Of a DNA stretch of 64,000 bases, positions 1 through 34,266 are shown piece after piece. Below the pieces are notes generated by a model, which was not told where the DNA came from, ran no database searches, and worked only from the letters and a program-made list of their open reading frames with translations. The translations under genes were made by a program, and so were the position numbers. Source of the stretch: Flavobacteriales bacterium. GTDB lineage: Bacteria > Bacteroidota > Bacteroidia > M30B66. Location: the NCBI GenBank assembly GCA_040403315.1, contig JBBAKX010000003.1, positions 29,627 through 93,626 on the forward strand. The letters are read 5' to 3'. Position 1 is the stretch's first letter; the number at the start of each line of letters is the position of its first letter.

Positions 1-1165
1 CGTTGCCGTTAATCGGATGGATGCCTTTGCGCATTATTTGAGTCTAAATGGTTTTAGGGTTTCTGTAATTACATTGAGAGAAAATCTCAATGATTTAAAC
101 TATGAGGTTTTAGGCGGAATTACAATTTATAGGTTATCCAATAATGTTTTATTTAAAAGGTCTAAGTTTTATGCTGGTGAGGCAAAATGGAAGCATTTGA
201 TTAAAGTTGGATGGAACTTGATTTCTGCTCGAATGGATCCACTTCCCGAATCGGGATGGATGAAGGCTGTTTCGGCGCAATTATCCAAATTACATCAAGA
301 AAAGAAAATTGATTTGGTAATTAGCTCATTTTCTCCTGTAGAATCTCATTTGGCTGTAATACGTTTTCTCAATAAAAACAATGAGGTTAAGTGGATTGCC
401 GATATGCGGGATGAAATGTCGATGAACAAATTGCTGCCATCTTTAACTCGGAAAAAATTAGTGTATTATGAAAAGGAAATTGGTAAAAAAGCAGATGCTA
501 TCACATCAGTCAGTGCGCCGATTTTAGATCAATTTCGCTTATTGATGCCCAATGTTAAGTATTTTGAGGAGATTCGAAATGGCTTTAACCATGACTTGAA
601 CTTTGAAAATAAATTTAATCAAAAATTTACGATTGTTTATGCAGGTACTTTTTATGGCCTCATAAAACCAACAACTTTTTTTGAAGGATTAAAAGTTGCA
701 TTAAATCAAACGTATTTCGATTTCGAGATCTGTTTTATTGGTACGCATCGCAATTTTCAGATTCCTCAAGAATTTGTAAATCACTGTAAGTTTATTCCTA
801 AGGTTAGTCAGTTGCAATCAATTGTTTATATGGGCAATGCTGATGCGAATTTGCTGATTCTTCCAGCAGACGATCGTAAAGGTGTGTATTCAGGTAAATT
901 GTTTGATTACCTATCGGTTAAAAAGCCCATTATTGCGGTGATTGATCCTAATGATGTCGCAGCTCAATTGATTCGCCAACTTAATGCTGGATATGTTGCT
1001 GATTTTAGCAATCCTAATGAAATCGCATCCGCAATTTTGGCCGCATTTTCTTTGTGGAAGGCTAAGGACTCATTGGATTTAGACAAAGACAAATTTGAAT
1101 TACTTCACAGAAAACATCAGGTGAAAAAGTTGGAATTACTCATTCATAAAATACTCCAAAAATGA
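1..1165 (+). CDS. Glycosyltransferase (GT1/GT4-like), 5-prime partial at window edge
   Basis: ORF 17..1165 has no in-frame stop back to nt 2, so the N-terminus is probably upstream. C-terminal half (KPIIAVIDPNDVAAQL...GYVADFSNPNEIASAIL) resembles a GT-B group-1 C-terminal domain. Its stop overlaps the next start (ATGA at 1162-1165), suggesting an operon. Confidence 0.5.
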   Translation, partial: VAVNRMDAFAHYLSLNGFRVSVITLRENLNDLNYEVLGGITIYRLSNNVLFKRSKFYAGEAKWKHLIKVGWNLISARMDPLPESGWMKAVSAQLSKLHQEKKIDLVISSFSPVESHLAVIRFLNKNNEVKWIADMRDEMSMNKLLPSLTRKKLVYYEKEIGKKADAITSVSAPILDQFRLLMPNVKYFEEIRNGFNHDLNFENKFNQKFTIVYAGTFYGLIKPTTFFEGLKVALNQTYFDFEICFIGTHRNFQIPQEFVNHCKFIPKVSQLQSIVYMGNADANLLILPADDRKGVYSGKLFDYLSVKKPIIAVIDPNDVAAQLIRQLNAGYVADFSNPNEIASAILAAFSLWKAKDSLDLDKDKFELLHRKHQVKKLELLIHKILQK

Positions 1166-2184
1166 AGGTAATTCAAGTCGGACCCGAAGGCATCCACCTC
1201 TCTAATTATTGTTTCTCAATTTTACCAATCATAGATAATTTAGGATACATTGGAGAGACCAATTATAATATTTCAGGAACGAATTCTTCTGTTGTTGCGC
1301 CTTTTCGTGGCTCGAATGTTTTTATTTGGATAAAGTCTTATTTAAAAATTATAAAATATTTGAAAAGTGAAAATCCTGATATCATTCATATTCATCAGGT
1401 TAATCGATTGGCATTTTTTGTTTGTTTAGCTGCTAATAAAACCAAAGTTCCAATTGTTACAACTGCTTGGGGAAGTGATGTTTTACTAGTGCCCCAAAAA
1501 AGTTTTATTCATCGATTTATTGCCAAGTTTGTTCTCAAGAATAGTTTTGCGATAACTGGAGATTCGAAACAGATGATTTCGGCTATTCGTAATTTGGTTC
1601 CTAATCACAACAATCTACAATGTATTCAATATGGTATATTTCCTGTAAAGTCTTCCATTAAAGAGAATTTAGTTTATTCTAACCGCTTGCACAAACCATT
1701 GTATCGAATCAATTTAATTATCAAACTATTTGCAGAATTTTATTCTACTCACAAGGATTGGAAATTGGTGATTGGTGCAGAAGGTGATCAAACTGCATCT
1801 TTAAAGTTATTAGCTCACTCATTGTTACCTGAAACGGCTTTTGAATTTACGGGTTGGCTCAATGTTGAACAAAATGCATTTTGGTATTCCAAGTCATCAA
1901 TCTATATTTCATTGCCCGAAAGTGATGGAACTTCAGTGAGCCTGCTGGAAGCTATGTCGGCCGATTGCTTGCCTATCGTTCCTGATCTTCCTGTATCTGA
2001 AGAATGGATAAAATCGGGCATCAACGGTATTGTATACAATCCTGAATTAAATCCAATTGAAGAAGCTTTAAAATTGGATTCTGATGTTTGTCTTAAAACC
2101 AACCAAAAATTAATTGGAGAAAGGGCTTTAAAATCGACCACTACAAAGCAGTTTTATTCTATTTACGAATCTGCTTTGAAATGA
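1162..2184 (+). CDS. Glycosyltransferase family 4 (group 1)
   Basis: GT-B hallmarks: WGSDV near the N-terminal domain, and EAMSADCLPIVPD...GINGIVY (the E-x7-E region) in the C-terminal domain. 4-nt start/stop overlaps on both sides. Confidence 0.7.
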   Translation: MKVIQVGPEGIHLSNYCFSILPIIDNLGYIGETNYNISGTNSSVVAPFRGSNVFIWIKSYLKIIKYLKSENPDIIHIHQVNRLAFFVCLAANKTKVPIVTTAWGSDVLLVPQKSFIHRFIAKFVLKNSFAITGDSKQMISAIRNLVPNHNNLQCIQYGIFPVKSSIKENLVYSNRLHKPLYRINLIIKLFAEFYSTHKDWKLVIGAEGDQTASLKLLAHSLLPETAFEFTGWLNVEQNAFWYSKSSIYISLPESDGTSVSLLEAMSADCLPIVPDLPVSEEWIKSGINGIVYNPELNPIEEALKLDSDVCLKTNQKLIGERALKSTTTKQFYSIYESALK

Positions 2185-3383
2185 AAATGATCGCACCGAA
2201 GCATTTTCTTTTTTATTCCACTGCGATTTTGGCTGCATCTCTGCCGGTTTTTCCAGCGTGGATCCCATTGTTTATAGCTGTATTATTTCTTGTTTATCTT
2301 TTCACTAATGGTTGGAAGCTTCGATTCAATGAGCTTTTCACTTCTAAGTCGGCCATTACATTAATCGTTTTTTTTCTTTTCAATGTTATCGGCATTTTTT
2401 GGTCTGAGAATATTGATAAAGCAATTATGCACTTGGAAATAAAGTTGTCATTGCTGTTTTTCCCATTCCTATTATTTGCTCGACCCGACTTAAATAAAAT
2501 TACTGAGAAACGAATTCAATATGTATTTTGCTTTTCTAGTGCAGTGGTTGCATCATTTTTATTGTTGCGAAGTTTTTGGAGTGCTTTTTTTGTAGATGGA
2601 GTTGTATTAAGTTACGGAGCGTTTTCTCCAATTTTCCATCCATCTTATTTGTCGATGTATTTCATCCTAGCCATCATTTTATTGGTGGAGGGTTTTTTTG
2701 ATATACCTAAGAAGTATAATTTTCTGTTTGGAATTGCATTGGTGTCTCTTGCCACATCTGTCTTCTTCCTTGCCTCAAAGGTGAACATTATTTTATTGTT
2801 TGGTTTTTGCATATTTTATTTATTCAGATTTCTAAAGAATCGAATTTCAAATCTTAAGCAAATCATTGTTGCGGGATTTTTTGGCATTGCTTTCTTTTAT
2901 GCAATCTTTTTAAATCAAGCTATTTTCGAGCGCTTCTTAAAAGGGTTTGATACTGTTAAAAACATCAGTGAAATCGATGTGAATGACACAGAAAGCAATG
3001 CAGCGAGGATTTTAATTTGGAATTCTGCTCTTGATCTTATTACTGAGCATCCTTGGGGAGTTGGAACTGGAGATGTTAATATTGAACTCACAAAAAAATA
3101 CCATGAAAATGGTTTTACAGGAATTGAAAACCGCCAACTAAATGCCCACAATCAGTTTCTTCAAACTGCTGTTGCTCTCGGAATTTTAGGCATGATCAGC
3201 CTATTTTTTGTTTTTCTTGTTCCGATGTTTTATTCGATTGTTCAACGCGATTTTTCAATGGTGGGTTTTTTAATTCTAACTTTTGTAAACGCATTTGTTG
3301 AAGGTATTCTTGAAGCCCAAGCAGGTGTTGTTTTCTTTGCATTCTTTTACGCACTTTTGCTTCGAAATGTCAAGTCGTCTTAA
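2181..3383 (+). CDS. O-antigen ligase/polymerase-like membrane protein (Wzy_C / WaaL family)
   Basis: About 10 predicted TM helices. Periplasmic loop has the HPWGVGTGD...NAHNQFLQTAVALGILG motif typical of the Wzy_C (O-antigen ligase) family. Embedded between glycosyltransferases. Confidence 0.65.
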   Translation: MKMIAPKHFLFYSTAILAASLPVFPAWIPLFIAVLFLVYLFTNGWKLRFNELFTSKSAITLIVFFLFNVIGIFWSENIDKAIMHLEIKLSLLFFPFLLFARPDLNKITEKRIQYVFCFSSAVVASFLLLRSFWSAFFVDGVVLSYGAFSPIFHPSYLSMYFILAIILLVEGFFDIPKKYNFLFGIALVSLATSVFFLASKVNIILLFGFCIFYLFRFLKNRISNLKQIIVAGFFGIAFFYAIFLNQAIFERFLKGFDTVKNISEIDVNDTESNAARILIWNSALDLITEHPWGVGTGDVNIELTKKYHENGFTGIENRQLNAHNQFLQTAVALGILGMISLFFVFLVPMFYSIVQRDFSMVGFLILTFVNAFVEGILEAQAGVVFFAFFYALLLRNVKSS

Positions 3384-4386
3384 AGTTTCTGTCGTTATCC
3401 CTTGTCGCAATGAGGAAAAACACATCCAGCAATGTGTTGAGTCTGTTCTCGCTTCCGATTATCCGAAGGAATTACTGCATGTACTTGTTTGCGATGGCAG
3501 AAGCACCGATCACACCAGAGAAATAATTCAGCGGTTTGAATCCAATCCAATGGTTCAATTGGTTGATAATCCCGAACAAACCACTCCATTTGCACTCAAT
3601 TATGGTATCCAAGCAGTATTAACAGACGTAGTAATTATTTTGGGTGCTCATGCTGAAATTGCATCCGATTATGTGCGATTGTGTGTAGAAACTTTAAGCA
3701 ATCATCCCGATGCAGGCTGTGTTGGTGGAGTTCTCGATACCATCTCTGAAGATGAACAAACTGCTTCTATTGCGATTTCCATGTCGTCGTCTTTTGGCGT
3801 AGGAAATGCTTATTTCAGAACAGGTGAACGCTCTGGTTATGTTGATACTGTTGCTTTTGGAGCTTATCGGAGATCGGTTTTCGAACGTATCGGTTTGTTT
3901 AATCCTATTCTAGCTAGGAATCAGGACGATGAATTTAATTTCAGGCTACTAAAATCAGGATCGAAGATTTTTCTTAATCCTGAAATTCGTGCTAAATATT
4001 ACGTTCGTTCTTCATTTTCCAAGCTGTTTCGTCAATATCGCCAATATGGTTATTGGAAGGTTTTTGTGAATCGAGAACAAGCAACTGTTACTACTCTTCG
4101 CCAATTAATTCCACCTATTTGGGTGGCGTACTTATGCGCACTTCCAGTCGCATTTTTAGTAAATGAATATTTAGGATTATTTTGGGTTTTAGGCATCTTC
4201 GCTTACCTCGCGCTTTCGATTTATAGTGCTATTCGATTGGCTAAATCATTCATCCAATTTATTCAGGTTTGCTGGTCGTTTTATATTTTACATTTAAGCT
4301 ACGGAACGGGCTATATCGAAGGGATTTTCGATTTTATTCTTCTTCGAAAATCTGGAGGAAAGCAAAATACTTCTTTAAGTCGCTAA
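3367..4386 (+). CDS. Glycosyltransferase family 2 (membrane-associated, C-terminal TM helices)
   Basis: N-terminus MSSRLKVSVVIPCRNEEKHI...LVCDGRSTDHT is the classic GT2 nucleotide-sugar-binding start. A DDE/D-x-D-like QDDEF is present. Hydrophobic C-terminus. The ORF track begins at 3295, but the first ATG (3367) overlaps the upstream stop by 17 nt and is the likelier start. Confidence 0.75.
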   Translation: MSSRLKVSVVIPCRNEEKHIQQCVESVLASDYPKELLHVLVCDGRSTDHTREIIQRFESNPMVQLVDNPEQTTPFALNYGIQAVLTDVVIILGAHAEIASDYVRLCVETLSNHPDAGCVGGVLDTISEDEQTASIAISMSSSFGVGNAYFRTGERSGYVDTVAFGAYRRSVFERIGLFNPILARNQDDEFNFRLLKSGSKIFLNPEIRAKYYVRSSFSKLFRQYRQYGYWKVFVNREQATVTTLRQLIPPIWVAYLCALPVAFLVNEYLGLFWVLGIFAYLALSIYSAIRLAKSFIQFIQVCWSFYILHLSYGTGYIEGIFDFILLRKSGGKQNTSLSR

Positions 4387-4403: not shown

Positions 4404-7400
4404 TTAAAATGCTTTTGACACTTTCGCCGATTGGCAAGATCCATTGTAAACAACCTGAATGGTATAAACACCTCGAGCCATTCCGTCTGCAGGAACATTA
4501 AAATGATTTATCCCTTCATTTGACGAAATAGTTTGTTGAAGAATCATTTTTCCATTCATATCGAAACAGAAAACCTTCACTTGTCCTTTCCCATTGTTGG
4601 TAAATGCACCACTCAAGCCTTTTCCATCTTCAAATGATGCATGCACAAGCTGAAACGAAGCTGATTGCTCAAATTGAACTGGAACAATTTCTGAATTACT
4701 GAATTCTCCGTTGAAATCTACTTGTTTCAATCGGTAATACAGCACTTCAGCGCGTTGCCGAGCAGCCATCGGATCTAATAATTCGTACTTAATTAGGTGA
4801 TTGGCATTTCCTGATCCATTAACACGACCAATTGGTGTAAATTTTAACGCGTCTGTTGATCGATACACTTCGAAATAATCATTGTTGATCTCCGAAACGG
4901 TTGTCCATTTTACTAATACGTCTTCTTGTATAGGTTCTGCTGAGAATTCGAGCAATTCAACTGGCAGTGCTGCATTGTCGAGTACGCCAAAAGTGAAAGG
5001 TCCAAATAAATTGGTTGCATCAGCAGTTATAGAACCTTCGGCCGTTGAACCTCCCGCATTTGATGCCACTGGCCCAATTTCCTTCCATTGTTGTTTGTCT
5101 GCCTGCCAAGCTGCAATTCGCAAACGCATCATAACATTGTTTTGCTCCGTGATGCCGCTTTCTGCTCCCCAGTTAAATGTAAATGTCGCGCTTTGTCCAG
5201 GCGATGGCGCAGGTGGTTGAATCATCCAGTATTCTAGGTTTTTTACTTCCATCGGATTTCCGTCCACATTGTTGGTATTGAATGATGAAGCAGCGCCGAA
5301 ATTGAAGTATTCCGCGGTGAGCGCGTTTCCTCCTTCATTTACTGCGTTTACAGGTCTAAATCTGCCATTTTTCCCTACGGGGAAGAGAAATTCTGCAGTG
5401 CCTGAGCTAAACTGCTTCATCACTGGGCCATCGATGTAATTATTGGAAGATCCAAAGCCCACAAGTTTAGCATTGTCGGCAACTGTGAGAAGATTGGTGG
5501 CTGATGTGTATAGAATTCCGGAGTTCATCACTAGGCTGTCGAGCACTGTTAATGGACTTCCTAGTCGCACCGAACCTTGCGTGTTTCTGTTTAGTTTGAG
5601 TGATTTTACTACGTTGTGACCAGGTTTGAATTTTAAATAGCCGATTACATTGGCTGAACCATTTACACGAAATCTTGTTGCTGGATCTGAAACTATGGTA
5701 CCGTCGGCCAAAGAATCAATTGTTCCATAAAGGTCAACATGACGACTGTTTGTGATCAATTCAGCGCCTGTGTTGAGGCGGATCACACCTGTCGACTTCA
5801 GTTTTAAGGTTAAGTTCGAATTTCCGTTCAACTGCATTTTTCCTGCGTTTCTAACGGTCAAGCTATTTAATTCAGCCATACTTGGAGTAGCACTGAACTT
5901 AATGCTGTCTTTCTGAGCATTGTAGCTGGCCATGAAGCTTCTCAAGCCAGTGTTATTGCTCCATTGCGACGATGAAGAATCGTTGTTAATGGTCCAATGT
6001 GAAGTGCCAGAGTTCAAAGTTCCTATAAGTTCTACATTTCCAGCCAACAAAGCCACACTGTTTTGCTGCGTCAATGTTCCGCGGATACGCGCCGAACCGT
6101 CGAACCAACAACCTTCGAGACTTGAATTTCCATTCATCGTAAGGATTGCCGATGGTTTAATGTCTATGCCTTTGAAAAATGCTTGTTGTCCTGCCGTCAT
6201 GATTGGTGCACGAACCACATTTACATTGCCCGCTGGCGTTGGTGTTGTGGAAGGAAATGCCGCAATGATGATGCTGTCGGCACAGGATGGTTTTTGTTTG
6301 AAATCCCAGTTGCTGTCGGTGTTCCAATCTGCGTTGGTTGCGCCCGTAAAGGTTTTTACATTGAACACTTCATCGGCGCCAATGTCGGTTCCGCGTCTGA
6401 ATTCGCCATCAATATCTGTATTTATTGCCAATGGTGACGTAACGACCATTCCTTTGCTGTTCACACGAATTTCGCACTGAGGAACGTGTAAATCGGCTGT
6501 GCCAGAAGATGTGAAAACGCTTGTAAAACAGGCTGTTTGAGAAGCCGAAACCGAAGCAATGTTTTCGAAATATGAATGTTGGTCTTTGCTTGTAAGTGAT
6601 TGCCAACCTGCCAAATTTTGAAAATTGCTTCCCCAGCGGGTCGAATTGCTTGCTATTGCTGCAAAAAGAATGTTGTTGTTCGATGCAGTAATTGCTGGTG
6701 ATGTAAGTTCTGAACCGAATCCGATGTGTCTTGAACTTCCCACTCTGGCGTTGCAGAAAATATTGTTTTGTACGTAAGCGGGCGCTGGAATGTTGATGCT
6801 CCAATTGTTGCCCCTGTAAAACGCATAAGTTGAATTGGATGCTCCCGATTCGGTTCCTCCGATAAACACTGTGTTGAAAGAGAATTGAACTGGGTTGTTC
6901 CGGGTGTCGTTGCCATGCCAAATGCCGATCATTCCAACTTTTTGGTTGTTGTTTGTGCCATTTGGAAATATACCTAATGTGATCATATTGTTGTAGATAT
7001 ACAATGAACCACCTGCTTCTTTGTCTCCACTGTTGATGGCCGAAACGATAGGCCCTTGATTATTCACATAAGTAGATCGATTCAGTAGATTGTAAATTCT
7101 GTTTCCATACACTTTCGAAATTCCTGGCGCTGCAGAAACAATTCCTGAAGTGTGCGATGCTATCGAAGTGGCAGAAGATGAACTGATTGTATGAATGATG
7201 TTGTTGTAGATATTGGCATCACCAGTATGCGTCAACATTAAAATTCCAGCAGCACCCTGGTTGGTTCCCCATTGATCGGAGGTAGAAAATGATTGCAGAT
7301 TGCAAATCGTATCGTTTCGAAGTATAACGCCCGCTGTACCATTGTGAAAAATACCTCTTGCGTAAGAATTTGAATGGGTAGAAGAATCACAAAGGCCCGA

Positions 7401-9638
7401 AATATAGTTCCCATAGATTTCTGCAATGTTTACACCATTGCTCATGCTGAGGATACCAGTAACGGTTTGTTTTTTAGTGCTGCTTCTGGTTCTTAAGCTT
7501 GCAGTTTGGATTCGATGGCCGATGGTATTGTTGCGAATTTGTATGCCCGAACCTGTTGCTCCAACGCGAATTCCTATAATATCGATTCCAAAATCACCAC
7601 CGCCTGAAACAGCTCCAACCATACCACGAATGGCGTTGCTTTCGACAATCCCTTCAGCGCCGTTAAATTCGATTCCTATGGCAGAAATTCCTCCAACGGT
7701 ATTGTTGGCTGAGGAGTTAAAAACCAACGAATCTCGGCTACCAATTGTGTTATTTCTAACGAATGCTTTTCCTTGGTTAATAAATATTCCTCTGAAACTG
7801 TATTCGTTGGTATTTGTAGTTCTTGTGAAGGTCATGTTGAAATTGTTGATCACATTTCCTTCAATAAATGCTGTTGAGGCTGCCGGAATTCGAATGTCAA
7901 TTGCACGAATTCGCATCGGCATATTGCTCGAAGTTGTCATTGTCCATGCTTGTCCAAGTGCAAATCTGGCCTTGCCGCCAATGTAATTGTTGGTGACAAA
8001 AATTGAGTCGCAATTGTTCGAATTCCCACCACTTTTTCCTCCTATAATTGAAACGTAGGTAGCTGAATTTCCTGGAGTTCCAGCCGAAACTTGGTACAAA
8101 TGGTTGTTGGTAATACGAACTGCTCGCAAATTGTCGCCAATAGCGATATAACCTGATGCAGAACTTGGTGTATAGATGTCGGTAATTTCGTTGCTGTTGA
8201 TCGCAATGTTTCTGCTTTCATAGCCAACCGTTCCGGCGATTAAAATGCCGTACCTCGGTGATGCGCTGGTAGCACTTGTTATCAAATTGTATTGAAAGGT
8301 TATGTCGCGGTTGGCAGCAGTTAAAGCAGCATCTCCTACTTGTAATAATCCTTGATTTGCATTGGTTGATGCACCTTCGATTCTGCAAAATTTAACTGCG
8401 CTATTGGATGATCCGTTTCTGAATTGAATAGTGGGACTGCCAGTATGGTTGTTTACAAAAATCAATCGTTTGGGCGTAGAGAAGCTTTCTGAAACATCAC
8501 CGATAGATCTACCGTCGATAAGAATATTGTCGGAACCATTGAAACAGAACATTCCATTTGTACTAACTGTGGTAGCGCTTGTGATGGTTCTGGTGGTTGT
8601 ATTGTTTGGACGAATGCTTACTTGATATTGATTCATTCCAGCAAGCTGGGGAAGGGAAAAAGTTCCTGTTTCACCGTTAATATCTGATACAACCTTCAGT
8701 GTTACATTGCTTGATATTCCTGAGTAATAGCTCATTTCTTGGAAAATTCCTCCACTGTTAGTGAACGACCTGAAATTGCCAGTGCTTCCAACGGTGTAAG
8801 CGCCTCCAGGAAATGATTGTGAAGGTGAATTGATTCGGAAGTTGTCAAGAAACATTTTCATTCCATTAGAACCTTTGTAAGTAATCTTGAAATGATTCGG
8901 AGAATTTGACGGTGTTTGAACATTTACTGCACTGTAAACCAAAGTAGTACCAACCCAAATGTCGGTTTTGTCGGTAGCCAATGTTCTTGGTAATCCATTT
9001 GGACCCGTATAGTTTAATGTGGTATTTGTGTTATTGATTACCCAAGTAAACTGAGTCATTGTTATCGCAGTTACATCAGAGTAATCATCGTCATCATCGT
9101 CGTCACTGTCATCTTCATCGTCCGAATCGTCGTCGTCATCGGTAATAGAAACACTGGTAAATGTGTTTGTAGATACCTGATTTCCTGTGATGTCGCGCAC
9201 TTTAAATTGTCCGTTTGAGGCAAGTGAATTGATGCCGAATTGTGCGTAAGTATTTGCGTTTGTTTCAGTAATTGCATTGTTGCTAAAGCCGCTTCCCAAT
9301 TGAAAAACGACAGCATCAGTTACGGCGCTTGAATTTCCTTGGAAACTGCAGTCGAATCGAATAAACATCGCTTGAGGATTGCCGCTAAAATTGGTGTTCC
9401 GAACGATGCTGCCTTGCTGGTTTCCGTTGCCAGTTTTTTGCACCCGAAGCCTTTGCTGATTGATCTGATAGTTTATTTGCGAAGGCCCGCCCATCCAAGT
9501 GAATTGGTTATTCGCCGGACTAGGATTAAAGTATGTGGATACACTTGATGATGTAGAGAAATTCTGAACGAAAGTTTGAGATTTTCCTAAGAACGCTAAA
9601 GTTATCACCAATGAAAGAAGAAGTAGGCGTTTTTTCAT
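4404..9638 (-). CDS. Giant secreted right-handed beta-helix repeat protein with T9SS C-terminal sorting domain (about 1745 aa)
   Basis: Signal peptide MKKRLLLLSLVITLAFLG (start moved to the ATG at 9636-9638 rather than ORF start 9683). Dozens of NNxI/GNxI/RNNTI parallel beta-helix-like repeats. Acidic tract DDDDDSDDEDDSDDDDDDD. C-terminal 80 aa (KVFCFDMNGKMILQQ...GVYTIQVVYNG...AKVSK) fits the Por/T9SS CTD pattern. Confidence 0.7.
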   Translation of the reverse strand: MKKRLLLLSLVITLAFLGKSQTFVQNFSTSSSVSTYFNPSPANNQFTWMGGPSQINYQINQQRLRVQKTGNGNQQGSIVRNTNFSGNPQAMFIRFDCSFQGNSSAVTDAVVFQLGSGFSNNAITETNANTYAQFGINSLASNGQFKVRDITGNQVSTNTFTSVSITDDDDDSDDEDDSDDDDDDDYSDVTAITMTQFTWVINNTNTTLNYTGPNGLPRTLATDKTDIWVGTTLVYSAVNVQTPSNSPNHFKITYKGSNGMKMFLDNFRINSPSQSFPGGAYTVGSTGNFRSFTNSGGIFQEMSYYSGISSNVTLKVVSDINGETGTFSLPQLAGMNQYQVSIRPNNTTTRTITSATTVSTNGMFCFNGSDNILIDGRSIGDVSESFSTPKRLIFVNNHTGSPTIQFRNGSSNSAVKFCRIEGASTNANQGLLQVGDAALTAANRDITFQYNLITSATSASPRYGILIAGTVGYESRNIAINSNEITDIYTPSSASGYIAIGDNLRAVRITNNHLYQVSAGTPGNSATYVSIIGGKSGGNSNNCDSIFVTNNYIGGKARFALGQAWTMTTSSNMPMRIRAIDIRIPAASTAFIEGNVINNFNMTFTRTTNTNEYSFRGIFINQGKAFVRNNTIGSRDSLVFNSSANNTVGGISAIGIEFNGAEGIVESNAIRGMVGAVSGGGDFGIDIIGIRVGATGSGIQIRNNTIGHRIQTASLRTRSSTKKQTVTGILSMSNGVNIAEIYGNYISGLCDSSTHSNSYARGIFHNGTAGVILRNDTICNLQSFSTSDQWGTNQGAAGILMLTHTGDANIYNNIIHTISSSSATSIASHTSGIVSAAPGISKVYGNRIYNLLNRSTYVNNQGPIVSAINSGDKEAGGSLYIYNNMITLGIFPNGTNNNQKVGMIGIWHGNDTRNNPVQFSFNTVFIGGTESGASNSTYAFYRGNNWSINIPAPAYVQNNIFCNARVGSSRHIGFGSELTSPAITASNNNILFAAIASNSTRWGSNFQNLAGWQSLTSKDQHSYFENIASVSASQTACFTSVFTSSGTADLHVPQCEIRVNSKGMVVTSPLAINTDIDGEFRRGTDIGADEVFNVKTFTGATNADWNTDSNWDFKQKPSCADSIIIAAFPSTTPTPAGNVNVVRAPIMTAGQQAFFKGIDIKPSAILTMNGNSSLEGCWFDGSARIRGTLTQQNSVALLAGNVELIGTLNSGTSHWTINNDSSSSQWSNNTGLRSFMASYNAQKDSIKFSATPSMAELNSLTVRNAGKMQLNGNSNLTLKLKSTGVIRLNTGAELITNSRHVDLYGTIDSLADGTIVSDPATRFRVNGSANVIGYLKFKPGHNVVKSLKLNRNTQGSVRLGSPLTVLDSLVMNSGILYTSATNLLTVADNAKLVGFGSSNNYIDGPVMKQFSSGTAEFLFPVGKNGRFRPVNAVNEGGNALTAEYFNFGAASSFNTNNVDGNPMEVKNLEYWMIQPPAPSPGQSATFTFNWGAESGITEQNNVMMRLRIAAWQADKQQWKEIGPVASNAGGSTAEGSITADATNLFGPFTFGVLDNAALPVELLEFSAEPIQEDVLVKWTTVSEINNDYFEVYRSTDALKFTPIGRVNGSGNANHLIKYELLDPMAARQRAEVLYYRLKQVDFNGEFSNSEIVPVQFEQSASFQLVHASFEDGKGLSGAFTNNGKGQVKVFCFDMNGKMILQQTISSNEGINHFNVPADGMARGVYTIQVVYNGSCQSAKVSKAF
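9072..9140 (-). repeat. GAT/GAC-rich low-complexity tract encoding poly-Asp/Ser/Glu linker inside the giant beta-helix protein
   Basis: Plus strand reads gtaatcatcgtcatcatcgtcgtcactgtcatcttcatcgtccgaatcgtcgtcgtcatc. Translated on minus it gives TDDDDDSDDEDDSDDDDDDDYSD (aa 181-203 of the ORF). Confidence 0.8.
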
Positions 9639-9826
9639 ATAGTGTTGAGTGTAATCAGATTCATATCGGGTGTTATAAGGCATCCTTTACTATCCAATTT
9701 TATAAGGGTTACTGAAGAAACATCGCATTAGAGCAGGAAAATTTTAATTAACACTAAATCAGGCACTTAAATAGGTTTTAATATTACATTATTTCTTACA
9801 TGCCTCTTTTTACCAATGTTTCAAGA

Positions 9827-9851: not shown

Positions 9852-11063
9852 ATGATTCCATTTTCACCGCCACATATCAGTCAGGAAGTAATTGATGAAG
9901 TAGTTGCAGCCCTGAAATCTGGCTGGATTACCACCGGGCCAAGAACCAAGGAATTAGAAAAACGACTAAGTGCTTATTGCGGAGTTCAATCAACATTGTG
10001 TTTAAATTCTGCTACAGCGGGATTAGAAATTATGTTGCGTTGGTATGGTGTTGGGCCGGGCGATGAAGTAATTTTGCCAGCTTACACGTATTCAGCAACT
10101 GCCAATGTTGTTGAGCATTGTGGAGCCAAAGTGGTTTTTGCGGATGTGAAATTGGACGATTTCAATATCAATCCGGATTGTATCAAGCATTTGATCAATT
10201 CGAAGACGAAGGTTGTTATGCCAGTAGATTTTGCGGGCTTGCCATGTGATTTTGATGCAATTAACCGTTTGGTGGCTTCGCCGGATGTGAAAGCGTTGTT
10301 CAAACCCAATCATCCGAATCAAGAAAAGTTAGGTAGGATTTTGGTGCTTTCGGATGCCGCACATTCTATAGGGGCTTTTTACCAAGGGAAGCATACCGGT
10401 GCGCTAACAGATGTATCGGTATTTTCGTTTCATGCCGTAAAGAATCTCACTACAGCCGAAGGCGGCGCTGTAGCATTGAATTTGCCTGAACCATTCGACA
10501 ATACAGAGATTTACAAAGCGCTGTGCATTTCAACCTTGCATGGCCAGAACAAAGATGCCTTAGCAAAAATGCAAAAGGGCAACTGGAAATACGATGTTAT
10601 CGAGCCAGGTTATAAGTGCAACATGACCGATATCATGGCTGCGATCGGTTTAGTAGAGTTAGATCGTTATGATCGAGAGGTTTTGCCTCGTAGAAAATTG
10701 ATCATGCACAAATACCATGAAGCATTTAAAGGGTATGATTGGGCAGAACTTCCTCCAACAGAATCAGACGAAAAAACGAGTTCATACCATCTGTATCCTT
10801 TGCGCATCAAAGGAATAGATGAGCCAACCCGCGACAGAATCATGCAAGCAATTTTCGATCAAGATGTGAGTGTGAATGTGCATTTCATTCCAGTTCCGAT
10901 GATGAGCTATTACAAATCGAAAGGATATGACATTCGAAATTATCCAATAACGTACTACAATTTTAGCAGGGAGATTAGTTTGCCTGTATACGAAGATTTG
11001 AACGACGAATTGGTTGATGAAGTAATTCGTGCTGTAGTAAAGGCAGTGGAATCGAATATTTGA
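9852..11063 (+). CDS. DegT/DnrJ/EryC1/StrS-family PLP-dependent sugar aminotransferase
   Basis: N-terminal MIPFSPPHISQEVIDEVVAALKSGWITTGP matches the family start. SFHAVKNLTTAEGG contains the PLP-binding lysine. Length 403 aa. Confidence 0.85.
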   Translation: MIPFSPPHISQEVIDEVVAALKSGWITTGPRTKELEKRLSAYCGVQSTLCLNSATAGLEIMLRWYGVGPGDEVILPAYTYSATANVVEHCGAKVVFADVKLDDFNINPDCIKHLINSKTKVVMPVDFAGLPCDFDAINRLVASPDVKALFKPNHPNQEKLGRILVLSDAAHSIGAFYQGKHTGALTDVSVFSFHAVKNLTTAEGGAVALNLPEPFDNTEIYKALCISTLHGQNKDALAKMQKGNWKYDVIEPGYKCNMTDIMAAIGLVELDRYDREVLPRRKLIMHKYHEAFKGYDWAELPPTESDEKTSSYHLYPLRIKGIDEPTRDRIMQAIFDQDVSVNVHFIPVPMMSYYKSKGYDIRNYPITYYNFSREISLPVYEDLNDELVDEVIRAVVKAVESNI

Positions 11064-19015: not shown

Positions 19016-20056
19016 ATGTTGATTGTAGACAAACTTGGTATCGTGCTAGGTAAAACCTTAAATAGTTTTGAATGTGACGGCGTTTTAAACCCTGCGGTAA
19101 TAAAAGTGAATGATAAAATCCATATGTTTTATAGAGCTTTGGCAAAAGACAACTATTCTACAATAGGCTATTGTGTCTTGTCTTCCCCTATGGTCGTGGA
19201 AAGCAGAAATGAAATGCCATTACTTGTTCCACAAGCCGATTATGAGTATCAAGGTTTAGAAGATCCTAGAATTGTTCAAATTGATGGCCTTTATTATATG
19301 TCTTACACTGCATACAATGGTGTTAATGCATTGGGCGCTTTAGCTACCTCTACAGATTTAATGAAATGGAAAAAACACGGCATTATTGTTCCTCAAATTA
19401 CATATGATGAATTTAAACACTTTACCGAATCTAGTGGAGTAGTTCGCGAAAAATATAAACGATTCAATGCCCATCTATCTAGCCACGAAAAGCATGATCG
19501 TACAACTTTTATGTGGGATAAAAATCTTGTCTTTTTTCCTCGCAGAATTGATGGAAAACTCTTTTTTTTTCATAGAATAAAGCCAGATGTTCAAATTGTT
19601 GTTTCAATTAACTCGTTGGATGACTTAAACGTTGAATTTTGGCAAAGCTATTTCTTGAAATTTGATGATTACATAGTTCTATCTCCTAAATTTCAGCATG
19701 AAGTAAGCTATATCGGATGTGGATGTCCGCCAATTGAAACAGAGGCTGGCTGGCTTTTAATTTATCACGGCGTACATGATACAGTAAGAGGATATGTATA
19801 TACTGCTTGTGCAGCGTTGTTGGATTTAGATACACCTCAAAAAGAAATTGCACGACTACCTTACCCATTGTTTTTTCCCGAAAAAGAATGGGAGCTAAAA
19901 GGCGAAGTGAACAATGTTTGTTTCCCTACTGGTGCTATTCTTGAGGGAGATACTCTTTATATATATTATGGTGCAGCCGACGAAAGAATCGCAGTTGCGT
20001 CTTTAAAATTAAGTGAGTTATTGGCTGAATTGGCTTTAAATAAAATTAATAAATAA
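19016..20056 (+). CDS. GH130 / DUF377-family glycosidase or glycoside phosphorylase (beta-propeller fold)
   Basis: FECDGVLNPAVIK...HMFYRA...EDPRIVQIDGLYYMSYTAYNG...GWLLIYHGV...DTLYIYYGAADERIAVAS is the repeated pattern of GH130 mannoside phosphorylases and related DUF377 proteins. Confidence 0.7.
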   Translation: MLIVDKLGIVLGKTLNSFECDGVLNPAVIKVNDKIHMFYRALAKDNYSTIGYCVLSSPMVVESRNEMPLLVPQADYEYQGLEDPRIVQIDGLYYMSYTAYNGVNALGALATSTDLMKWKKHGIIVPQITYDEFKHFTESSGVVREKYKRFNAHLSSHEKHDRTTFMWDKNLVFFPRRIDGKLFFFHRIKPDVQIVVSINSLDDLNVEFWQSYFLKFDDYIVLSPKFQHEVSYIGCGCPPIETEAGWLLIYHGVHDTVRGYVYTACAALLDLDTPQKEIARLPYPLFFPEKEWELKGEVNNVCFPTGAILEGDTLYIYYGAADERIAVASLKLSELLAELALNKINK

Positions 20057-20059
20057 AAG

Positions 20060-22432
20060 ATGAGAACCGATATCGTATTGCATACGCCCAAAACAGAATT
20101 TTTAAGTCGCCCGCAAGTTTCTGTACAACTTTCAGTAAATCAAATGGATTCAATAGACGACGCGATTCTTCTTCCAGAAATACTCTTTGTTACATCATTT
20201 CCTTTTAGAGAATGTGGCATTGCAACATTTTCTCAAGATTTAATAGCTGCTTTACAAGATCAGTTTGAGCAATCTTTTAATTGTTCTATTTGTGCATTAG
20301 AATCTGATGCCGAGCAGCATGTTTACCCGATGCAGCCTCGCTTTATCTTAAATACCAGTCAACGAAATGCATTTGTAAAAACCGCATTTTTAATAAATCA
20401 TAGCGATAACATAGATTTAGTCGTAATTCAGCATGAATTTGGATTTTTTGCTGATAAAGAGCCTGATTTTAAGTTGTTTTTTGAAAGTATCCTGAAACCA
20501 GTAGTTTTTGTTTTTCACACTGTGCTTCCATCTCCTAGCAAGGAATTGCTTGATAAAATTCAAGATTTGGCTGCAATTTCTGCATCAATAGTTGTAATGA
20601 CAAATGATGCGGCAAAAATTCTTATCGATGATTACAATATTGCAGCTTATAAAATATCTGTAATTCCACATGGCACTCACTTAGTGCTGCCTTTAAATAA
20701 AAATACCTTAAAGAAAAAATATAATCTTACAGGTTTTAAAGTACTTTCAACTTTCGGTCTTTTAGGTAGTAGCAAGAGTATTGAAACCACTTTAATGGCT
20801 CTTCCAGAAATTCTTCTTCACCATCCTGATGTCTTGTTTTTGGTACTTGGGAAAACTCATCCTTCGATTGTAAAGAAAGATGGCGAAAAATATAGACATT
20901 ATTTAGAATCCTTGGTGTTTGAGTTAAAACTAGAGAACAATGTTAAGTTCGTGAACGAATACCTCTCATTACCTAATCTTTTGGAATATCTTCAATTAAC
21001 CGATATTTATTTGTTCACCTCTAAAGATCCTAACCAAGCTGTTAGTGGTACTTTTTCTTATGCAATTAGCAGTGGTTGCCCAGTAATATCAACTCCAATT
21101 CCTCATGCCAAAGAAGTTTTTCGAGATGGAGGAGGCGTAATAATAGGCTTTGAAGATAGCTTGCATCTCGCTGATGAAGCAATTGCTCTTCTCGATGACG
21201 AAGAACGTAGAATGGATATTTCATCAAATAGTTTCCATAAAATGGCATCCACAGTGTGGCAAAATTCAGCTATTTCTTATGGATTGTTGTTTGATAAATT
21301 AATTACTTCTGATTTTCATTTGAATTTTCGCATTCCAGTTTTTAATCTAAATCATATTCGCAGAATGACCACTGAATTAGGTATGATTCAATTCGCGAAA
21401 CTCTCGATCCCTGATTACAACTCTGGTTTTACTTTAGATGACAATGCAAGAGCGCTTATATCTATTGCACAGCATTATGAACTTTTTCATAGTGATAGTG
21501 ATTTAGAACTTATCAAAACATATTTGAATTTTATCGCTAGGTGCATGCAACCCAATGGTATATTTTTAAATTATGTTGATACCAACAAAGAATTTACTCA
21601 ACAAAACTACTCAGAGAACCTTGAAGATAGCAATGGTAGAGCCATTTGGGCATTAGGATACTTACATTCTCTTAAAAAAATTTTGCCAGATTCGCTACTT
21701 AATTTTTCCTTTGATTTAGTAAATAAAGCGTTGCCTCAATTACTGAAAATTCACTCTACTCGGGCGATGGCATTTATAATTAAGGGTTTACATTATATAG
21801 ATAATGAAGATTGTCAAATTGTATTAGAAGCACTTGCCAAACGGATGGCACTAATGTATAAACATGAAAAGAACAACCAATGGTTTTGGTTCGAACGTTA
21901 TATGACATATGCCAATGGACTTCTCCCCGAGGCTATGCTATGCGCTTACACAGCTACTTATGATGAAGAATATAGAATTATAGCATTAGAAAGTTTCGAT
22001 TTTTTATTGTCTATAATTTTGTCGGAGGATAAGATTAAGGTTATCTCTAATAAGGGATGGTTAATGAAAGATTCATTTAACCATTTGCAAATAGGTGGTG
22101 AGCAACCAATTGATGTAGCTTATACTATTTTAGCTCTTGAAAGATTCTACACTGTGTTTAAGAAGGATATTTACAAACAAAAGCTGAAAATTGCTTTTAA
22201 CTGGTTTTTAGGAGCTAATCATTTAAATCAAATAGTTTATAACCCTAGAACTGGTGGCTGTTATGATGGTTTAGAAGAAACGCACGTTAATCTTAATCAA
22301 GGTGCTGAATCTTCAATTAGTTATTTATTGTCTCGTTTAGCAATGAGTAGAATTTTAGAATCTGATAAAGGCAATTACATCTATGCAATTCCATCAACTG
22401 TTTTGATAATGGATGACACAGATATTTCTTGA
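20060..22432 (+). CDS. Two-domain protein: N-terminal GT4-family glycosyltransferase (about 400 aa) fused to a C-terminal (alpha/alpha)6-barrel glycoside-hydrolase-like domain (about 380 aa)
   Basis: N-terminal domain: ILFVTSFPFRECGIATFSQDL (GT4 N-terminal signature), then the GT1 core (STFGLLGSSKSIE...YLFTSKDPNQAVSGTFSYAISSGCPVISTPIPHAKE). C-terminal domain: DDNARALI, NGRAIWALGYL, WFERYMTYANGLLPEAM, LNQGAESSISYL, which resemble six-hairpin glycosidase/GDE-like folds. The fusion itself is directly visible as one uninterrupted ORF. Confidence 0.6.
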   Translation: MRTDIVLHTPKTEFLSRPQVSVQLSVNQMDSIDDAILLPEILFVTSFPFRECGIATFSQDLIAALQDQFEQSFNCSICALESDAEQHVYPMQPRFILNTSQRNAFVKTAFLINHSDNIDLVVIQHEFGFFADKEPDFKLFFESILKPVVFVFHTVLPSPSKELLDKIQDLAAISASIVVMTNDAAKILIDDYNIAAYKISVIPHGTHLVLPLNKNTLKKKYNLTGFKVLSTFGLLGSSKSIETTLMALPEILLHHPDVLFLVLGKTHPSIVKKDGEKYRHYLESLVFELKLENNVKFVNEYLSLPNLLEYLQLTDIYLFTSKDPNQAVSGTFSYAISSGCPVISTPIPHAKEVFRDGGGVIIGFEDSLHLADEAIALLDDEERRMDISSNSFHKMASTVWQNSAISYGLLFDKLITSDFHLNFRIPVFNLNHIRRMTTELGMIQFAKLSIPDYNSGFTLDDNARALISIAQHYELFHSDSDLELIKTYLNFIARCMQPNGIFLNYVDTNKEFTQQNYSENLEDSNGRAIWALGYLHSLKKILPDSLLNFSFDLVNKALPQLLKIHSTRAMAFIIKGLHYIDNEDCQIVLEALAKRMALMYKHEKNNQWFWFERYMTYANGLLPEAMLCAYTATYDEEYRIIALESFDFLLSIILSEDKIKVISNKGWLMKDSFNHLQIGGEQPIDVAYTILALERFYTVFKKDIYKQKLKIAFNWFLGANHLNQIVYNPRTGGCYDGLEETHVNLNQGAESSISYLLSRLAMSRILESDKGNYIYAIPSTVLIMDDTDIS

Positions 22433-22481: not shown

Positions 22482-22511
22482 AAAATGGAAGCAATAAAAA
22501 CTGCTTTCATT
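22482..22511. terminator. Candidate bidirectional hairpin between the convergent GT4-fusion and glgB genes
   Basis: AAATGGAAGCA-ATAAAAAC-TGCTTTCATTT. One mismatch in a 10-11 bp stem. U-rich on both sides. Confidence 0.4.
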
Positions 22512-24606
22512 TTGAATTATTTGCTTTTTTATCTGTTGTTTTCGTAGTTATTGATTTCAAGTTTTGTTTCAGAGGTTTCAAAACAATAACACTTAATGGA
22601 GGCAAATTTAAAGACACTGAATACTCACGGTTATTTCTAGCAATATTAGTAGCAGAATATTTGCGTATTTCGGAGTAATTGCTACCATTATATTTGGTAT
22701 CGTCGCTATTGAATATTACATCATAATCTCCACTTTTAGGCATCCCCATTCGGTAATTTTCATGTGGAACTGGAGTTAAATTCGCAACCACAACAACAAA
22801 ATCATTTTGATCTTCTGCTTTACGTAAATAAGATATAACACAATTTTTATAATCGCTTAGGTCTATCCATTCAAAACCTTTTGCATTAAAATCTAACTCA
22901 TACAAAGCCTTTTCTTTTTTGTACAATGCGTTTAATGATTTTATCAATTCTTGAATTCCTTTGTGCGGTGCGAATTCGAGCAAATGCCAATCTACCGAAC
23001 TTTTATAATTCCATTCACCATATTGCCCAATTTCCGAGCCCATAAATAATAATTTTGTTCCTGGATGTGTAAACATGCAGCTGTATAATGCACGTAAATT
23101 CGAAAATCGATGCCATTCATCACCCGGCATTCTTTGCAGCAAAGAGCCTTTCCCATGAACCACTTCGTCATGAGAAAGTGGCAACATGAAATTTTCATTA
23201 AATGCATAATACAATGAAAAGGTAATGTCGTTTTGATGGTGTTCGCGATAAATTGGATCAGTTCCAAAATACCGCAATGTATCATGCATCCAGCCCATCA
23301 TCCATTTCATTCCAAATCCGAGTCCGCCTAAATATACCGGACGAGAAACCATTGGCCACGAAGTTGATTCTTCTGCAATCATTTGGATTTCAGGAAAATG
23401 AGTATACATTGTTTCGTTTAATTCTTTCATAAACGAAATCGCCTCCAAATTCTCATTTCCACCGTGAATATTGGGCTCCCATTCTCCTTCTTTTCTTGAA
23501 TAATCCAAATAAAGCATCGATGCCACAGCGTCAACTCGAAGCCCATCAACATGGTAATATTCTGCCCAAAACATTGCAGAACTTATTAAAAATGCACGAA
23601 CTTCATGTCTACCGTAATTGAAAATTAACGACTTCCAATCAGGGTGGTAACCTTTCCGCGGATCTTCATGCTCATATAATCTAGTCCCGTCGAAATTCGC
23701 CAACGCAAATGTATCTTCTGGGAAATGTGAAGGCACCCAATCCATTATTACTCCAATTTCATTTTCATGAAAAATGTCAATCAAATACATCAGATCTTGC
23801 GGACTTCCGAATCTAGATGTAGGCGCGAAATAACCCGTAGTTTGATAGCCCCATGATCCTGAATAAGGATGTTCGGTAAGTGGCATAAATTCCACATGCG
23901 TGAAACCCATTTCTTTAATGTACGGAACCAATTCTTCTGCCATTTCGCGGTAACTGATGTAGGCATCTTCTGCATCTCCCGATTTTTTCCAAGAACCTGC
24001 ATGCAATTCGTAAACCGACCACGGTTGTTGCAAAGTGCCTCGTTTTTTTCGCGATGACCAACGATTGGCGTTCCAGGTATAATTCAAGTCCCAAACTATT
24101 GAAGCGCGCTTTGGCGGCAATTCGCTGAAAAATGCAAATGGGTCGAATTTTTCTAAAATGTAACCCGTTTGCGCGTTCCTAATCATGTATTTGTAAAGAC
24201 TTCCATGTGCAACGCCTGCAACAAAAGTTTCCCAAATCCCTGATCCATCTAACCTCGGTTGTAATTTGCCTTGTTCTGGATTCCAGCCATTAAAATCGCC
24301 GATTACGCTAACTGCCGCTCCATTCGGCGCCCAAACAGCAAAATAAGTTCCCTGAATTCCATTGTTTTCGCAAAGATGTGAACCTAATTTTTCATACAAT
24401 TTAAAATGCTTCCCTTGTTTGAATAAATAAATATCCATGTCAGAAAACAAACTGAAATGCGATTTAACACTGTTTAAATCAATATTATTTCCCTCCGGGG
24501 AAGGGGCCGATTCGATTGTTCTAGCCTTAGGTTTTAAAGCCTTTTTTTCGATTGGATCGGCTTCTTTTTTTGCCTTAGTTTTCTTGGATATTTTTTTTTC
24601 AATCAT
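22507..24606 (-). CDS. glgB: 1,4-alpha-glucan branching enzyme GlgB (GH13_9), with Lys-rich N-terminal extension
   Basis: GTYFAVWAPNGAAVSVIGDFNGWN (CBM48 region). GH13 catalytic regions GLRVDAVASMLY, EESTSWP, HDEVVHGK. About 50-aa N-terminal tail KKISKKTKAKKEADPIEKKALKPKAR. Confidence 0.9.
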   Translation of the reverse strand: MIEKKISKKTKAKKEADPIEKKALKPKARTIESAPSPEGNNIDLNSVKSHFSLFSDMDIYLFKQGKHFKLYEKLGSHLCENNGIQGTYFAVWAPNGAAVSVIGDFNGWNPEQGKLQPRLDGSGIWETFVAGVAHGSLYKYMIRNAQTGYILEKFDPFAFFSELPPKRASIVWDLNYTWNANRWSSRKKRGTLQQPWSVYELHAGSWKKSGDAEDAYISYREMAEELVPYIKEMGFTHVEFMPLTEHPYSGSWGYQTTGYFAPTSRFGSPQDLMYLIDIFHENEIGVIMDWVPSHFPEDTFALANFDGTRLYEHEDPRKGYHPDWKSLIFNYGRHEVRAFLISSAMFWAEYYHVDGLRVDAVASMLYLDYSRKEGEWEPNIHGGNENLEAISFMKELNETMYTHFPEIQMIAEESTSWPMVSRPVYLGGLGFGMKWMMGWMHDTLRYFGTDPIYREHHQNDITFSLYYAFNENFMLPLSHDEVVHGKGSLLQRMPGDEWHRFSNLRALYSCMFTHPGTKLLFMGSEIGQYGEWNYKSSVDWHLLEFAPHKGIQELIKSLNALYKKEKALYELDFNAKGFEWIDLSDYKNCVISYLRKAEDQNDFVVVVANLTPVPHENYRMGMPKSGDYDVIFNSDDTKYNGSNYSEIRKYSATNIARNNREYSVSLNLPPLSVIVLKPLKQNLKSITTKTTDKKANNSK

Positions 24607-24626
24607 AAGTTTAATGTTTACTGTAA

Positions 24627-26276: not shown

Positions 26277-26287
26277 AATTATTCGGA

Positions 26288-34260: not shown

Positions 34261-34266
34261 TTGTTT

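Follow-up and report, generated by a model that had tools for sequence, protein, structure and literature searches.

A predicted type IX secretion cargo with a lectin-like domain and a beta-helical module encoded beside a glycan locus of a Flavobacteriales bacterium

Introduction

Large surface proteins exported through a type IX secretion system (T9SS) shape adhesion, gliding, biofilms and interactions with phages and predators in environmental Bacteroidota, and most of them are unannotated. Known type A cargo of this system, such as the gingipain RgpB and mirolase (TIGR04183, PF18962), have a signal peptide together with a sorting domain of about 80 amino acids (aa) at the C-terminus (CTD). 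Type A cargo is described as anchored to the glycans of lipopolysaccharide (LPS) (PMC7468200, PMC13086638, PMC9143113), and in Porphyromonas the PorR/WbpE enzyme makes the linking sugar (PMC7468200). Here we describe a gene for a large protein of this kind in a 64,000-nucleotide (nt) stretch of DNA from a Flavobacteriales bacterium (GenBank assembly GCA_040403315.1, contig JBBAKX010000003.1, positions 29,627 to 93,626), hereafter the window. The gene (positions 4404..9638 of the window, minus strand) codes for a new, uncharacterized member of a well-known kind: a large T9SS type A cargo, assigned by the membership of its CTD and predicted to be exported, with a beta-helical passenger. Like RgpB and mirolase, the protein combines a signal peptide with a CTD of the expected size, but its passenger is a lectin-like head and a beta-helix stalk rather than a protease.

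Passengers with beta-helices have also been described in other anchoring and export systems. PfbA, a beta-helix surface adhesin of the Gram-positive Streptococcus pneumoniae (3zpp and 4mr0), is LPXTG-anchored, and Vag8 is an autotransporter, whereas the protein described here has a T9SS CTD, and its helix is predicted to wind through some 20 coils, each about 36 aa long. Searches of the PDB sequences detected no sequence homology with either. The same fold serves the pectin-lyase-fold enzymes and depolymerases (BT_1002 glycoside hydrolase, RbmB, AlgE4, PL6, PL9, GH28 and K-type capsule depolymerases), none of which matches the protein at the level of a sequence family. Unlike these enzymes, the protein has no conserved residues of catalytic type in its helix body, and the module that contains the helix occurs in tandem in other proteins. 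The N-terminal domain has the same predicted fold as L-type lectins and other ConA-like domains (Emp46p/Emp47p, ERGIC-53 and calreticulin). The sequence identity is only 7–14%, and a lineage-specific poly-Asp loop sets the domain apart from them.

Results and Discussion

Two AlphaFold2 models built from homolog alignments cover aa 22–1105 (model 1; mean predicted local distance difference test score (pLDDT) 79, predicted template modelling score 0.76) and aa 1091–1744 (model 2; pLDDT 75). The modularity of the protein was delimited by BLAST and hidden Markov model comparison with homologs, which separated an N-terminal domain (aa ~1–276), a module of about 800 aa (aa 277–1100) and a nested C-terminal cassette whose sub-module boundaries (near aa 1240, 1440–1465 and 1540) are shared with other proteins. 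Searches with the whole protein and five segments against Pfam, together with NCBIfam, PHROGs and PDB sequences (single sequence and a profile of 14 orthologs), recognized the CTD only. The features of the gene, all on the minus strand, are as follows.

4404..9638, minus strand: whole gene, predicted secreted modular surface protein (open reading frame and translation, 1744 aa)
9579..9638, minus strand: predicted Sec signal peptide, aa 1–20, MKKRLLLLSLVITLAFLGKS (by inspection: MKKR, hydrophobic core, GKS/Q)
8811..9578, minus strand: ConA-like or L-type-lectin-like beta-jelly-roll, aa 21–276 (AlphaFold2 model and Foldseek)
9075..9140, minus strand: poly-Asp tract DDDDDSDDEDDSDDDDDDDYSD, 22 aa, aa 167–188, a loop insertion in the lectin-like domain
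6339..8810, minus strand: right-handed parallel beta-helix module of about 800 aa, aa 277–1100 (N-cap, coils and conserved C-terminal end)
6369..6416, minus strand: DxDGEFRRGTDIGADE motif, aa 1075–1090, at the module's C-terminal end (alignments)
5349..6338, minus strand: linker with a W..NW..P.C.D motif (aa ~1101–1160), then a short-strand solenoid-like region (aa ~1165–1420) (model 2 and DSSP)
4974..5348, minus strand: beta-sandwich domain, aa ~1431–1555 (model 2; Foldseek matches to tandem FN3/Ig arrays)
4659..4973, minus strand: FN3-like beta-sandwich, aa ~1556–1660, with an LPVELL...YYRLKQVDFNG motif (model 2 and Foldseek)
4407..4658, minus strand: T9SS type A CTD, aa ~1661–1744 (TIGR04183)

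The original prediction, read from the nucleotide sequence, had called for a signal peptide and a T9SS CTD, and both are supported. The signal peptide was recognized by inspection, its pattern recurs in the orthologs, and the residue directly after it (Gln21) is nearly invariant, with at least 90% conservation among the 14 orthologs. The CTD is of type A: NCBIfam TIGR04183 scored 30.4 bits (cut-off 23) over aa 1680–1741 and also matched 11 of the 14 orthologs, and the type B models (CHU_C and TIGR04131) went unmatched at E≤1 in both the Pfam and the NCBIfam scan. Furthermore, the ortholog profile matched a T9SS CTD chain among the PDB sequences (8glk_D, E 0.006) and, weakly, gingipain R2 (5hfs) and mirolase (8qb1) (E 0.27–0.37). 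Model 2 folds the same region into a seven-strand sandwich (model residues 572–652, corresponding to aa 1662–1742) with a pLDDT of ~75–86. The window also encodes a second T9SS cargo (47222–50485, minus strand), a protein of 1087 aa with Peptidase_S8 (subtilase), PKD and Por_Secre_tail (53 bits) domains. Just downstream, the same strand encodes an AAA_5 protein (44489–45991) and a VWA protein (45998–47086).

The central module is predicted to fold as a beta-helix, as had been proposed, though it takes up less of the protein. In model 1, aa ~311 to ~1011 form some 20 three-stranded coils, each about 36 aa long, which is roughly 40% of the protein rather than almost all of it. The modelled solenoid is three-stranded and right-handed and is structurally similar to members of the pectin-lyase fold. 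The motifs said to recur dozens of times are enriched only: the counts are 8 for NN.I, where composition predicts 1.4, 3 for GN.I and 2 for RNNTIG. A Pfam scan, suggested as a check, found no match to Beta_helix (PF13229) or NosD in the protein or its 13 orthologs. However, PF13229 scored 30.6 and 28.1 bits (cut-off 25.9) within the module-homologous regions of two other proteins (P0193 and P0203), providing a bridge at the level of sequence.

A phmmer search with the module against 1.84 billion representatives matched 680 proteins (clusters) at E≤1e-3, 90 of them at E≤1e-30. Most of these proteins are giant (up to ~6000 aa), with 1 to ~10 matched stretches spaced ~930–960 aa apart and accompanied by FN3, PKD, SprB, BNR_assoc_N and similar domains. 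Bacteroidota predominate among those with an organism name. The whole architecture of ~1700 aa is shared by about a dozen representatives with 27–57% identity, and full-length orthologs include P0002, P0003, P0004, P0021, P0023 and P0024.

Conservation within the module follows the coils. In 72 module copies we identified a ladder of asparagines (N551, N595, N630, N668, N704, N744, N813, N846, N883, N922, N958 and N989) that, together with a Gly-Ile pair, repeats every ~36 residues. Owing to this periodicity, the ladder and the pair probably provide stacking and turn residues. Within aa 376–964, neither the 14 orthologs nor the 72 module copies conserve any Asp, Glu, Lys or His. The conserved polar residues form a cluster toward the module's C-terminal end (aa 965–1090; R965, H971, D1019, S1022, D1075, D1077, R1081, D1085 and D1089). 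Eight residues of the DxDGEFRRGTDIGADE motif are invariant in the 14 orthologs (D1075, D1077, R1081, R1082, G1087, A1088, D1089 and E1090), and in the 72 module copies D1075 is 100%, G1087 99% and R1081 97% conserved. Because the motif is kept in every tandem copy, it may be a cap or a metal-site feature.

The N-terminal domain (aa 21–276) was modelled as a beta-jelly-roll. Its Foldseek matches in the PDB were Emp46/47p, ERGIC-53, calreticulin, the binding domain of the clostridial neurotoxin BoNT, the legume lectin domain of M. jannaschii and TtX122, with E values of ~1e-4 to 1e-3, template modelling scores (normalized to the target) of 0.4–0.58 and a probability of 1.00. The domain is also present in two other proteins (P0005 and P0019). 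No other part of the protein has diverged as far between close relatives, with 78–82% identity here and 86–93% elsewhere.

The helix module is followed by a linker (aa ~1101–1160) of low model confidence in which W1105, W1111, P1117 and D1121 are invariant among the 14 orthologs. Beyond the short-strand, solenoid-like region, three beta-sandwiches were modelled, the last of which is the CTD, and their Foldseek matches are generic FN3/Ig tandems. The FN3-like domain before the CTD (4407–5006 with the CTD, minus strand, aa ~1545–1744) carries the pattern LPVELL...W.T.SE.NNDYF..ERS.D...YYRLKQVDFDG, and no Pfam model matches the FN3-like part. A genome scan with the ortholog alignment used the C-terminal motifs and returned mainly this FN3-like and CTD cassette, not orthologs. 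The cassette was confirmed by tblastn at no fewer than 550 loci (including L004–L083) in GTDB representative genomes, nearly all of them Bacteroidota. Most of the matches spanned aa ~1340–1740 or aa 1550–1740. What is gained is thus a domain map of one family plus two recurrent elements, the ~800-aa module (about 680 clusters) and the FN3-like pre-CTD cassette, both without Pfam or NCBIfam models. Defining the module would improve the annotation of many giant proteins now called 'hypothetical'. No new mechanism is revealed.

Taken together, we give slightly better than even chances to a T9SS-exported surface fiber or adhesin anchored at its C-terminus. The original prediction had left the choice between an enzyme and an adhesin, and the adhesin is the better-supported and more likely of the two. 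In its favor, the helix is conserved in a purely structural pattern, giant multi-domain proteins repeat the module in tandem, which is typical of fibers and adhesins, the structural neighbors are of the adhesin type, and the domain predicted at the tip diverges faster. The N-terminal signal peptide would take such a protein into the Sec pathway and would probably be cleaved off right before Gln21, and the type A CTD would direct the translocation of the protein across the outer membrane. By analogy with cargo of Porphyromonas and Tannerella, the CTD would next be cut off and the new C-terminus joined covalently to an LPS-type glycolipid. The mature protein may form a rod in which the two Ig/FN3-like sandwiches and the solenoid-like segment are closest to the cell and the ~20-coil beta-helix forms a rigid stalk of roughly 10 nm beyond them. 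The ConA/L-type-lectin-like jelly roll would be located at the distal tip as a probable ligand-binding head. The poly-Asp loop may add negative charge or cation-binding capacity to the head, outside the core function of the family.

Several observations weigh against a surface fiber or adhesin. The score of Por_Secre_tail (PF18962) is 15–20 bits, below its threshold of 27 for this protein, and the family is annotated only as 'hypothetical' or 'T9SS C-terminal target domain-containing'. LPS tethering is established only for Porphyromonas and Tannerella, and the beta-helix fold is equally used by glycan-active enzymes. In addition, the polar residues conserved toward the end of the module (R965 to D1089) have no place in this reading and may serve as a functional site.

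One alternative is a secreted glycan-active enzyme. The protein could be a lyase, hydrolase or C5-epimerase of the pectin-lyase fold that acts on the polymer made by its neighbors or on a foreign polysaccharide, with the lectin-like domain as a carbohydrate-binding module. Indeed, ConA-like domains are common in that role, Foldseek also matched PL6 alginate lyase and GH87 glucanase, and a Wzx/Wzy-type glycan cassette lies beside the gene in the window and at four other loci (L002, L089, L090 and L085). However, searches of Pfam, NCBIfam, PHROGs and PDB sequences, those with the ortholog profile included, matched no lyase or hydrolase family; the models without a match include Pectate_lyase, Glyco_hydro_28, PL6 and similar ones. 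Acidic and basic residues of the helix body are not conserved across the 14 orthologs or the 72 module copies, and tandem repetition of up to 10 stretches in giant proteins is unusual for catalytic domains. Furthermore, all seven orthologs with 39% identity or less are encoded outside glycan loci. An enzyme is unlikely, and the proposal of a glycan-active enzyme is not supported. Homology with phage tailspikes or tail fibers was not found either, as PHROGs gave only a chance-level match of 15 bits to a family of unknown function.

The genes that flank the gene for the surface protein are the following.

1162–2184, plus strand: GT4, to the left of the gene
2181–3383, plus strand: Wzy_C protein, to the left of the gene
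3295..4386, plus strand: GT2 glycosyltransferase (Pfam Glycos_transf_2, 1.2e-23), last gene of the low-GC glycan operon and convergent with the gene
9852..11063, plus strand: DegT-family sugar aminotransferase (Pfam DegT_DnrJ_EryC1, 5.7e-94), divergent from the gene

The position between the GT2 and DegT genes is as first described, and so are the opposite strand and the convergent orientation relative to GT2. The gene was also said to be inserted into a polysaccharide locus, a wording that does not fit what the locus looks like. The gene sits between the 3' end of a plus-strand glycan operon and a separately promoted DegT gene, and no operon is interrupted. The operon is of the Wzx/Wzy type and reaches upstream beyond the window, to RNase Y. 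A Bacteroidetes-type promoter motif (TAAGTTTG) lies 25 nt upstream of the ATG of DegT, but no TAnnTTTG motif of this type turned up for the gene of the surface protein. Scans for sigma-70 promoters and terminators gave no excess over the shuffle expectation.

The same arrangement is present in four close relatives (L001, which is the window, L002, L089 and L090). In a more distant locus (L085), whose ortholog is ~53–57% identical, the DegT protein is 69% identical and its gene is still adjacent to and divergent from the large gene, whereas the glycan cassette differs (Wzy 30% identical, the other genes unrelated). The GC content of the glycan operon (17–4386, plus strand) is 35.5%, compared with 42.4% for the large gene, 42.1% for DegT and 39% for the window. 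These observations fit a conserved core pair, formed by the large gene and DegT, that borders an exchangeable glycan cassette. The low GC and the replacement in L085 suggest that the cassette is a horizontally exchanged one of the O-antigen or capsule type.

The shared position is confined to close lineages, however. Homologs keep it, adjacent to DegT, at or above ~53–57% identity, and distant orthologs do not. Of the seven distant orthologs, two neighbor a PhoD-family phosphatase that has a T9SS CTD, and the other five are in unrelated housekeeping surroundings. Synteny with glycan loci as a family-wide feature is therefore rejected. At the level of the family this is the outcome that the original prediction had named as refuting it, and a general functional link to the locus is not supported. 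The PhoD-family phosphatase, which carries a CTD of its own, is encoded directly upstream and in the same orientation at two loci (L003 5315–7144 and L084 7853–9682) whose orthologs have 37–39% identity. A giant protein of the SprB/PKD type is encoded nearby, and the pair may be conserved in that clade.

A tie to the glycan locus could also be non-enzymatic: the head could bind the cell's own polysaccharide (capsule or matrix), or the locus could make the glycolipid to which the protein is anchored. Such a tie is improbable and its functional case weak. In its favor are the adjacency and divergent orientation of DegT and the large gene from 100% down to ~53–57% identity while the cassette is swapped (Wzy 30%), the lectin-like head being the most divergent domain, and the precedent of Porphyromonas, where type A cargo is joined to the glycans of LPS (PMC7468200, PMC13086638). 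Against it, the distant orthologs have no glycan linkage, and other CTD cargo is encoded elsewhere in the genome. The GC content of the large gene and DegT (42%, versus 35.5% for the operon) fits a core pair at the edge of a mobile cassette rather than a co-evolving unit. Nor is DegT of the WbpE/PorR type. Its best solved relative (6ewj, 397 bits) is a capsular 4-aminotransferase-type protein, ahead of ArnB (211 bits) and WbpE (104 bits), which rules out DegT as the PorR/WbpE enzyme of the T9SS linking sugar.

A bolder version couples this tie to the module itself, and to the two jointly we assign only a slim chance. The Pfam-less module of ~800 aa, whose end carries the invariant DxDG..RR..D.GADE motif, would represent a new and widespread building block of Bacteroidota surface fibers, and its conserved end would have a function of its own. 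The DegT and fiber genes would form a pair at the edge of a hypervariable glycan cassette, and the head would co-vary with the cassette by binding to, or being presented on, the cell's own polysaccharide. If true, the protein would be a T9SS fiber specific for self glycans, in which the specificity typical of tailspikes is turned inward.

The 22-residue acidic tract noticed in the original prediction is indeed present (aa 167–188), and 18 of its residues are Asp or Glu. It is the sole disordered internal loop of the N-terminal domain (pLDDT below 50 at model residues 144–170). The tract is encoded by an imperfect GAT/GAC repeat, which Tandem Repeats Finder described as an imperfect repeat of period 6/9, and it occurs only in the five closest relatives, with a length of ~22–37 aa. 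An ortholog of ~57% identity (P0272) and four other proteins (P0023, P0004, P0005 and P0019) do not have it. The tract is best read as a recent, lineage-specific expansion of low complexity. It could have a role in cation binding, though not as a feature of the family. That it is functionally key, whether by binding Ca2+ or a mineral or as an acidic spacer that the protein cannot do without, is very improbable, since its acidity, its exposure in the modelled loop and its retention in five related genomes are set against its absence from every ortholog of ~57% identity or less and from further proteins with the N-terminal domain, its variable length and a coding repeat that resembles a slippage-prone low-complexity insertion.

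A single open reading frame spans 4404..9683 on the minus strand, and the Met codon at 9638 (MKKRLLLLSLVITLAFLGKSQ..., MKKRLLLL) gives a protein of 1744 aa plus the stop codon (4404–4406). This is one residue shorter than the 1745 aa first given, and the gap to the convergent GT2 stop codon (4384–4386) is 17 nt rather than 18. The gene is the largest in the window, as had been claimed, and the runner-up codes for 1087 aa. The public call (P0001) starts at an ATG 45 nt further upstream (9683) and has 1759 aa. Proteins P0002 and P0003 and those of L089 and L090 start at the Met equivalent to 9638 in the ortholog alignment. Given these close orthologs and the position of the signal peptide, 9638 is probably the better start and P0001 is probably 15 codons too long.

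Other genes in the window also relate to carbohydrates. A membrane-associated UDP-GlcNAc 4,6-dehydratase of 635 aa (28401–30308, plus strand; Polysacc_synt_2, PglF/CapD-like) could be the source of the keto-sugar substrate of DegT, though 17 kb separate the two genes. A GlgE-type alpha-glucan set (22507–28246, minus strand) comprises a branching-enzyme-like protein with CBM48 and alpha-amylase domains, a protein with a maltokinase N-terminal cap and the GlgE maltosyltransferase. On the plus strand (19016–22432), a GH130 protein of the beta-1,4-mannooligosaccharide phosphorylase family is followed at once by a GT4-type glycosyltransferase of 790 aa; in L089 an insertion sequence with a DDE_Tnp_1 transposase takes the place of this pair. 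Finally, a protein with HTH and Fic/DOC domains (36708–37760, minus strand) adjoins an Lhr-type helicase (34261–36681).

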